A stretch of 21,234 nucleotides of DNA from a virus. Taxonomy: Duplodnaviria; Heunggongvirae; Uroviricota; Caudoviricetes. Every line of letters begins with the position of its first letter. Position 1 is the stretch's first letter. Below the pieces are notes generated by a model. That model was not told where the DNA came from. It ran no database searches and saw only the letters and a list, made by a program, of their open reading frames with translations. The stretch lies in the IMG/VR virus record IMGVR_UViG_2537562190_000017. One strand, given 5' to 3'. This document shows positions 8,631 through 9,024 of the stretch, piece by piece. A program made the position numbers and the translations under genes.

Positions 8631-8661
8631 GTACAAACAGAAAACCCGTCAGTAAGACGGG
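8631..8661 (-). terminator. Intrinsic terminator downstream of the YgiW-like gene
   Basis: On the minus strand CCCCGTC-ttact-GACGGG followed by TTTTCTGTTTGT. Confidence 0.45.
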
Positions 8662-8676
8662 GATAACCTGAACCGG

Positions 8677-9024
8677 TTACTTTAATAATTTCAGCGTTTT
8701 TACATCCAGTTCAACACTGTTCAGGTCTTTATCAAGTTCACCCTCGATTATTACCTTATCTTCCGGAGACACATTCTGCCCGGCCCATACACTTTCATCG
8801 ATATCCGTGACAATGGTTCCGCTACTGTCGCGAAACTCATAACGATCATCACCCAATTTTTTAACGATGTGCCCTTCAAGGATAACCCATGCCTCGTCCT
8901 TCTGTTCTTTTGCCTGCACTACTGTTGTTGAACGCTCTGCTTCAGACCCCAGAAAACCTCCCTGTTGTGCAAAAACGCCAAAAGACACGCAGGAAAAAAG
9001 GGCTGCGATTAATACTTTTTTCAT
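8677..9024 (-). CDS. YgiW/YdeI-family (BOF, bacterial OB-fold) periplasmic protein with signal peptide
   Basis: ATG at 9024 with GAGGA SD; MKKVLIAALFSCVSFGVFAQQGGF... signal peptide, then ...DEAWVILEGHIVKKLGDDRYEFRDSSGTIVTDIDESVWAGQNVSPEDKVIIEGELDKDLNSVELDVK, which parallels the YgiW/YdeI pattern. Confidence 0.75.
   Translation of the reverse strand: MKKVLIAALFSCVSFGVFAQQGGFLGSEAERSTTVVQAKEQKDEAWVILEGHIVKKLGDDRYEFRDSSGTIVTDIDESVWAGQNVSPEDKVIIEGELDKDLNSVELDVKTLKLLK

Follow-up and report, generated by a model that had tools for sequence, protein, structure and literature searches.

A YgiW/VisP-like OB-fold gene of a lambdoid prophage is linked to hok in a module found in three genomic contexts

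In Salmonella, VisP is a peptidoglycan-binding protein that inhibits LpxO, and mutation of visP makes cells moderately sensitive to polymyxin; YdeI/OmdA has a part in resistance to antimicrobial peptides and interacts with OmpD (both as summarised in PMC5636140). Chromosomal members of this BOF family are envelope-stress proteins regulated by two-component systems, and a mutant in the Vibrio cholerae homologue has no polymyxin phenotype (PMC5636140). The mechanism of VisP is not transferable as such to Escherichia coli because the latter lacks LpxO (PMC5636140). Mobile copies of the family are also on record. BOF-family sequences occur in 1113 plasmid records (tblastn), and in phage 933W the gene L0136 (GenBank AF125520), whose product is 82% identical to the protein described here, is already described as 'similar to hypothetical YgiW and YdeI proteins'. 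A 933W-type gene recurs in 45 Stx-phage records. A protein identical to ours, WP_000756560.1, is annotated in E. coli O121 RM8352 and UTAK-6 as 'YgiW/YdeI family stress tolerance OB fold protein'. With this RefSeq annotation, PHROG 1230, and the 933W GenBank note, the gene is already known; hundreds of STEC genomes have it annotated, and it has little weight as a discovery. Our interest is in its surroundings, in particular the hok toxin gene directly upstream.

The window, by which we mean the whole 21,234-nt stretch of DNA that was analyzed, is the early half of a lambdoid prophage, with int/xis, exo, an immunity region, replication genes, hok, the BOF gene, a 90-amino acid (aa) ORF, a DUF968 gene, RusA, Q, a DNA methyltransferase gene, and lysis genes. 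The region is of the nin type because it lies between the replication genes and RusA/Q, and the location given in the initial annotation, directly downstream of hok in such a region, is borne out. The BOF gene is oriented with delayed-early transcription. Its other neighbor had been described as rem-like, which we could not uphold: the 90-aa ORF has no similarity to K-12 Rem (BLASTP E = 14) and no NCBIfam match, and merely holds the position that rem has in the Qin prophage, where the order is hokD-rem-ydfU and the BOF gene is absent. ARAGORN found no tRNA gene in the whole window. The prophages of UTAK-6, O121 RM8352, and O157 MB41-1 each have two or three tRNA genes (Arg, Ile) upstream of late-region accessory genes; in UTAK-6 and O121 these tRNA genes directly follow the DNA methyltransferase gene, in a slot matching window positions 4053-4555.

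The BOF gene is real, and its signals for translation and termination are well defined (table 1). Translation of the minus-strand ORF gives a product that starts MKKVLIAALFSCVSFGVFA and continues with QQGG after the predicted cleavage site. A program-made list of ORFs places the ATG at 9105, which makes the gene longer than its homologues show; we set the start at 9024 because the homologues and the position of the Shine-Dalgarno sequence point there. The presence of a strong Shine-Dalgarno sequence and a terminator belonging to the gene itself, both claimed initially, is confirmed. The former is kept (as AGAGGAC) in the 933W, O157, and chromosomal alleles. The terminator consists of a 6-bp GC-rich stem with a 5-nt loop (8645-8661) and a T-tract (8635-8644). 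It is the sole terminator-like site on the minus strand within 8200-9500, the first one downstream of the hok promoter, and it marks the distal end of the hok-BOF module described below. RNA folding from the 3' end of hok through the BOF gene showed nothing beyond two hairpins (z -1.4).

Table 1. Positions of the BOF gene, hok, and associated elements in the window
Feature	Position	Strand	Description and basis
90-aa ORF	8284-8556	minus	Between the BOF gene and the DUF968 gene; conserved, 'hypothetical' in relatives
Intrinsic terminator of the BOF gene	8635-8661	minus	CCCGTCTTACTGACGGG + TTTTCTGTTT
BOF-family CDS (stop codon included)	8677-9024	minus	115 aa; ORF and translation, homology
Predicted Sec signal-peptide coding part	8968-9024	minus	Residues 1-19; hydropathy, -3/-1 rule
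hok 3' untranslated region and hok-BOF spacer	9025-9141	minus	117 nt; hairpin 9113-9134, conserved block to ~9078
Shine-Dalgarno sequence AGAGGA (GAGGA core)	9030-9035	minus	5 nt from the BOF-gene ATG
hok toxin CDS	9142-9297	minus	51 aa; protein identical to HokW of 933W; directly upstream of the BOF gene
IS481-family-like insertion sequence	9312-10406	plus	1095 bp; transposase of 348 aa at 9369-10415
hok mRNA leader / sok antisense RNA element	10401-10568	minus	Rfam RF01794, 100.8 bits versus gathering score 59
Promoter-like site TTTGCA-17-TAGAAT	10575-10603	minus	Just upstream of the leader; candidate hok mRNA promoter, consensus scan

Profile searches place the product in the family to which the initial annotation had assigned it. 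It matches Pfam BOF (PF04076; E 1.6e-30, 105.7 bits vs. a cutoff of 25.8), NCBIfam NF033674 (NirD/YgiW/YdeI stress_OB_fold; 127.6 bits vs. a cutoff of 35), and, over its full length, PHROG 1230 (E 6e-54). The only solved relative found by sequence is YgiW itself (PDB 1NNX, E 2.5e-25). Scores for the narrower models fall under their cutoffs, with 103.1 bits for TIGR00156 (YgiW/VisP, qseBC-linked; cutoff 108.15) and 66.4 bits for NF007471 (the YdeI/OmdA equivalog; cutoff 179), and identity is 45-47% to K-12 YgiW (E 2e-34) and 34-40% to YdeI. By these profile scores and identities, the window gene is a diverged paralogue within the BOF family and an orthologue of neither chromosomal gene.

The OB fold that had been proposed also stands. 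An AlphaFold2 model computed from an alignment of 30 sequences reaches a pLDDT above 90 over residues 30-115, with low values in the signal-peptide segment, and its strands (46-56, 61-65, 70-75, 91-99, and 104-113) and short helix (77-80) form a five-stranded OB fold occupying residues ~30-115. The best Foldseek match of the model is 1NNX (E 6.6e-11, TM 0.91), and later matches are mostly to known OB folds (RMI2, RPA, Stn1/Ten1, HIN, and the anticodon-binding domains of aminoacyl-tRNA synthetases). Residues invariant in the family are kept (33 invariant columns in the 30 sequences, including W46, Y62, F64, D66, G69, and D98-K99-D100). The N terminus, MKK-VLIAALFSCVSFGVFA followed by QQ, reads as the predicted signal peptide that was first noted, with a charged MKK n-region, a hydrophobic core (mean Kyte-Doolittle hydropathy of 2.0-2.5 in 11-residue windows beginning at residues 3-9), and a cleavage motif, V-F-A|Q. 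Once cleaved, the protein would have 96 aa, a pI of 4.5, and a mass of ~10.7 kDa. The product would be a small acidic protein of the periplasm, shaped as a BOF-type OB barrel and dependent on the Sec pathway for its export. A reading as a lipoprotein (L-F-S-C, residues 9-12) was rejected as the main model, given that Cys12 is Gly in the common allele and that the 933W allele was scored SPI; a lipoprotein remains conceivable for the window allele itself.

Comparison with the K-12 hokD locus places the BOF gene at the point where a hok transcript would otherwise end. Downstream of the hok stop codon the two loci are nearly identical across a hairpin and a conserved block, and the similarity then breaks off sharply at window positions ~9074-9078. 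At exactly this break hokD has an intrinsic terminator, AACCCGCTTCGGCGGGTT followed by a T-run, and the window has the Shine-Dalgarno sequence and ORF of the BOF gene. Loci with hok only, in thousands of genomes, likewise cease matching at window position ~9074. A consensus scan of the coding strand of the spacer (9025-9141) found no sigma-70-like promoter, a scan that would miss non-consensus or activator-dependent sites, and there is no terminator on this strand between hok and the BOF gene. The spacer of an uninterrupted relative (L003) gave the same result for both signals in simple consensus scans of the coding strand. The proximal spacer is poorly conserved between alleles. The hairpin that follows the hok stop codon differs between the window and the 933W locus (L002) by paired changes, GGCGAGGGA...TCCCTCGCC versus AGCGGGGGA...TCTCCCGCC, with the stem intact, and because these compensatory changes preserve pairing between alleles they suggest a selected RNA structure. 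We take the conserved block to resemble the 3' 'fbi' element of the R1 hok model.

The BOF gene described here is always accompanied by hok. All 553 complete E. coli records with the gene also have a place covering at least 80% of the BOF gene, spacer, and hok together, a coverage that is unreachable without hok; linkage was scored per record. The converse fails: hok loci that lack a BOF gene are found in nearly every genome. The shared unit is a hok/sok-BOF module of ~0.95 kb that begins some 290 nt upstream of hok and ends with the BOF-gene terminator. Homology to 933W spans window positions 8633-9311 and 10407-10612, and homology to both 933W and a chromosomal locus ends at the terminator, at 8633-8642. 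With the same ends, the module occurs in three unrelated contexts. The first is the nin region, as in the window and loci L001, L003, and L006. The second is the far end of the 933W and Sp5 prophages near attR, on the strand opposite to that of the adjacent late/tail genes. The third is a non-prophage chromosomal site between a cytochrome c peroxidase gene and mrp-metG (L014-L017; e.g., L014 3554-4496), where the module is 85-87% identical and the encoded BOF protein is 78% identical. The genomes with this third arrangement are labelled E. coli (Escherichia-like), and their mrp-metG is just 87% identical to that of K-12; the arrangement is absent from the complete E. coli genomes in our collection.

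In the window copy, both parts of a hok/sok locus are present, and an insertion sequence (IS) lies between them. The IS transposase scores 221.6 bits against NF033577, just under the cutoff of 224. The element is flanked by a 6-bp duplication, TCTCCT (9306-9311 and 10407-10412), that corresponds to the hok Shine-Dalgarno sequence, and it is missing from loci L003 and L001 (UTAK-6 and O121 RM8352), which are otherwise 99.6-99.9% identical. The leader/sok element is thus 1.1 kb from hok in the window, split off by the IS, and is contiguous with hok in L003.

Published data on related prophages bear on how the module is expressed. [quoted passage not shown] Because of both properties of this mRNA, a repressor-independent promoter must exist upstream of hok. 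The northern blots of that study used 6% polyacrylamide gels, and transcript sizes are not given in its text (PMC8621323). A deletion of hokW-sokW halves Sp5 phage release (PMC8621323). The BOF gene immediately follows the segment deleted in hokW-sokW::km and could be subject to polar effects. The exact protein of the 933W allele (UniProt A0A4P8BAV1) is listed as Z1498, and as SPI by SignalP, in a 2026 study of the EHEC secretome (PMC12962677). It was found by mass spectrometry in supernatants of uninduced EDL933 and was reduced in a T2SS mutant (PMC12962677). These data support the translation and export of the 933W allele. Stx2 and other 933W-encoded proteins (Z1480 and Z1483) were also in the EDL933 supernatants (PMC12962677), so spontaneous induction is a possible source of Z1498. 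Our searches of the literature by gene name, family phrases, and locus tags returned no functional study or phenotype of the phage copy, only this detection and one mention in a GWAS.

That GWAS, a case-control study of HUS, found 'ygiW_2' and a mokC-like gene to be positively associated and statistically interdependent (PMC11950266). From their annotations, the two genes are most likely neighbors in one Stx-phage module. The interdependence would then follow from their likely adjacency, and the association probably hitch-hikes with phage type. The study treats the two as interacting factors, and their probable adjacency is not remarked there (PMC11950266).

We suggest that hok and the BOF gene probably share one transcription unit, with the BOF gene as its distal cistron, a conclusion that we infer from the absence of signals in simple consensus scans together with linkage. 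The lack of a promoter or terminator in the spacer, the comparison with hokD, the complete linkage, the three contexts, and the hokW mRNA of the lysogen all argue that it is not a self-contained moron. The initial annotation, which called it a prophage moron, was therefore right in part. Presence or absence amid collinear phage genes and deviant composition mark a non-essential accessory gene of a lambdoid prophage, but what moves is the module with hok/sok and not the BOF gene alone.

Our favored reading, which we hold with modest confidence, is that the gene encodes a periplasmic paralogue of YgiW/VisP, is co-transcribed as the distal gene of the hok/sok-BOF module, has a modest role in the envelope, and has in this copy been cut off from its promoter by the IS. 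Where the module is intact, transcription from the repressor-independent hok promoter would most likely continue through the terminator-less 3' region of hok into the BOF gene. Such read-through would give low constitutive expression of the BOF protein in the lysogen, and early transcription driven by pR would add to it after induction. By analogy to VisP and YdeI/OmdA, the protein would probably bind a component of the envelope, either peptidoglycan sugars or a porin, and thereby cause a modest shift in tolerance to envelope stress. A gain in stress tolerance, or lysogenic conversion more generally, is a weak extrapolation from chromosomal paralogues that are 34-47% identical. In the canonical hok mechanism of plasmid R1, the 5' end of the mRNA pairs with its 3' end. 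This mechanism would be complicated in a hok-BOF unit because of the 450-nt 3' extension. If this operon model is right, the window copy has lost its lysogenic promoter because the IS separates hok and the BOF gene from the leader and promoter. The window copy is probably poorly expressed in lysogeny, and its expression would come mainly from early-operon read-through after induction, or from the IS.

The main alternative, which we regard as possible but doubtful, is that the BOF gene is a stand-alone moron after all, with a promoter of its own within the 117-nt spacer that an envelope-stress regulator such as QseB, PhoP/PmrA, or RpoS may control, and is induced by stress in the lysogen independently of hok. 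The gene does have a strong Shine-Dalgarno sequence and a terminator to itself, and chromosomal members of the family answer to two-component systems. Its GC content (43.4%) is below that of hok (50.6%) and of the flanking genes (53-55%), in a window of 50% GC. Divergence between alleles also changes abruptly, with a dS of 0.057 in hok versus 0.37 in the BOF gene. The two genes therefore have different histories, with recombination between alleles in the spacer. But neither the window nor the uninterrupted locus has a sigma-70-like site on the coding strand of the spacer by consensus scan, the proximal spacer is poorly conserved between alleles, and the gene never occurs without hok in the 553 records or in any of the three contexts.

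Beyond co-transcription, hok and the BOF gene could form a true operon with cooperating products, for example, if the OB-fold protein modulates or exploits membrane damage induced by Hok. We consider this unlikely. If it were true, polarity on the BOF gene could account for part of the hokW-sokW::km phenotype, the twofold lower release of Sp5, and the 'synergy' of ygiW_2 and the mokC-like gene in the HUS GWAS would partly reflect one module rather than two independent genes. Even the apparent transcriptional tie of the BOF gene to hok would bear on how published hokW-sokW deletion phenotypes are interpreted.

Still less probable is a role as a helper in the lytic cycle, in which the protein is made mainly after induction, either from pR transcripts that read through the nin region or alongside Hok after Sok has decayed, and acts on the envelope, where it would aid lysis or progeny release or, by binding an outer-membrane protein, block superinfection. 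The delayed-early direction of the window gene between the replication genes and Q fits such a role, as do the halved release of Sp5 upon hokW-sokW deletion, in which the km cassette could be polar on the BOF gene (PMC8621323), and the binding of a porin by YdeI/OmdA (PMC5636140). However, in 933W and Sp5 the module sits at the far prophage end on the strand opposite to the adjacent late/tail genes, and it is also found at a chromosomal site outside any prophage. Because of this position and this copy, a purely lytic role cannot account for retention everywhere.

The favored reading of a maintained envelope function is consistent with patterns of variation. Between the window and 933W alleles, dN/dS is 0.22 at the dS of 0.37 given above, and between the 933W allele and the O157 nin-region allele it is 0.04. 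Substitutions between alleles are mostly conservative. The low ratios, the conservative nature of most substitutions, and the retention of invariant residues indicate purifying selection on the BOF gene. At a threshold of at least 80% coverage of the gene, 550 of 5426 complete E. coli genomes (~10%; 553 records) carry it, and carriers are mostly Shiga-toxin producers by strain names, among the matches listed. The window allele (at least 99% identity) is the minor one, with 12 records versus 541 for the common 933W-like allele; the exact protein sequence is present on about 1000 contigs. That the gene is a functionless passenger, hitch-hiking with a selfish hok/sok locus and conferring nothing, is very improbable: strict linkage to hok and the lack of a phenotype for the phage gene in the literature searched would fit, but the frame, signal peptide, and invariant residues are kept at a dN/dS of 0.04-0.22 among alleles with dS up to 0.37, and one exact protein sequence is so widely shared.

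Of the known systems, the closest is the 933W gene L0136, which is the same as ECs_1244 of Sakai Sp5 and Z1498 of EDL933 and belongs to the same subfamily as the window gene, with 82% identity over the full length of the protein. The ECs_1244/L0136 group carries the annotation 'YgiW/YdeI family stress tolerance OB fold protein'. L0136 shares with the window gene the signal peptide, the hok gene upstream, and the terminator downstream. The alleles have 87% nucleotide identity and differ by one extra residue and by Cys12 of the window protein, which is Gly in 933W. The loci differ in location, the nin region in the window versus the prophage end near attR in 933W/Sp5, and in the IS in the hok leader, which 933W lacks.

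Relative to YgiW (1NNX) and Salmonella VisP, the window protein has the same BOF OB fold, a signal peptide, the QGGF motif, and the invariant residues, but it is 15 aa shorter than YgiW and has one QGGF linker repeat where YgiW has two. Gene context also differs. K-12 ygiW adjoins qseB and 117-aa forms of YgiW are also found beside a two-component pair, whereas the window gene lies between hok and nin genes. With YdeI/OmdA, the likeness is limited to the Pfam BOF family and a periplasmic OB-fold architecture, at the low identity given above.

Plasmid BOF genes (the PSLT020 region of pSLT, IncF copies, and NcrY) are mobile copies of the same family. Apart from seven phage-type records, they are at most 54% identical among the matches listed, and in two loci inspected they are not next to hok. 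Hence, the family as such does not need hok. The plasmid matches include NcrY nickel-resistance proteins. In pSLT (L018 2501-2785) the BOF match has 50% identity, and the annotated ORF PSLT020 covers only its last ~200 nt. In E. coli VTB97432v, a 130-aa BOF-family gene (L007 5979-6371) is found without hok at the end of another lambdoid prophage, after tail-fibre genes and near zinT. Because this is a separate gene, prophages have captured BOF genes more than once. We considered whether BOF genes generally travel with hok and rejected it on the basis of the plasmid copies and this prophage copy next to tail-fibre genes.

The hokD (relF) locus of the K-12 Qin prophage offers a contrast. Like hok of the window, hokD has a lambdoid nin-region position upstream of a DUF968 gene and Q, and its ORF and 3' region are ~95% identical to those of the window down to position ~9074. 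But in Qin a terminator comes directly after and is followed by rem, whereas in the window there is no terminator at this point and the BOF gene and its own terminator follow instead.
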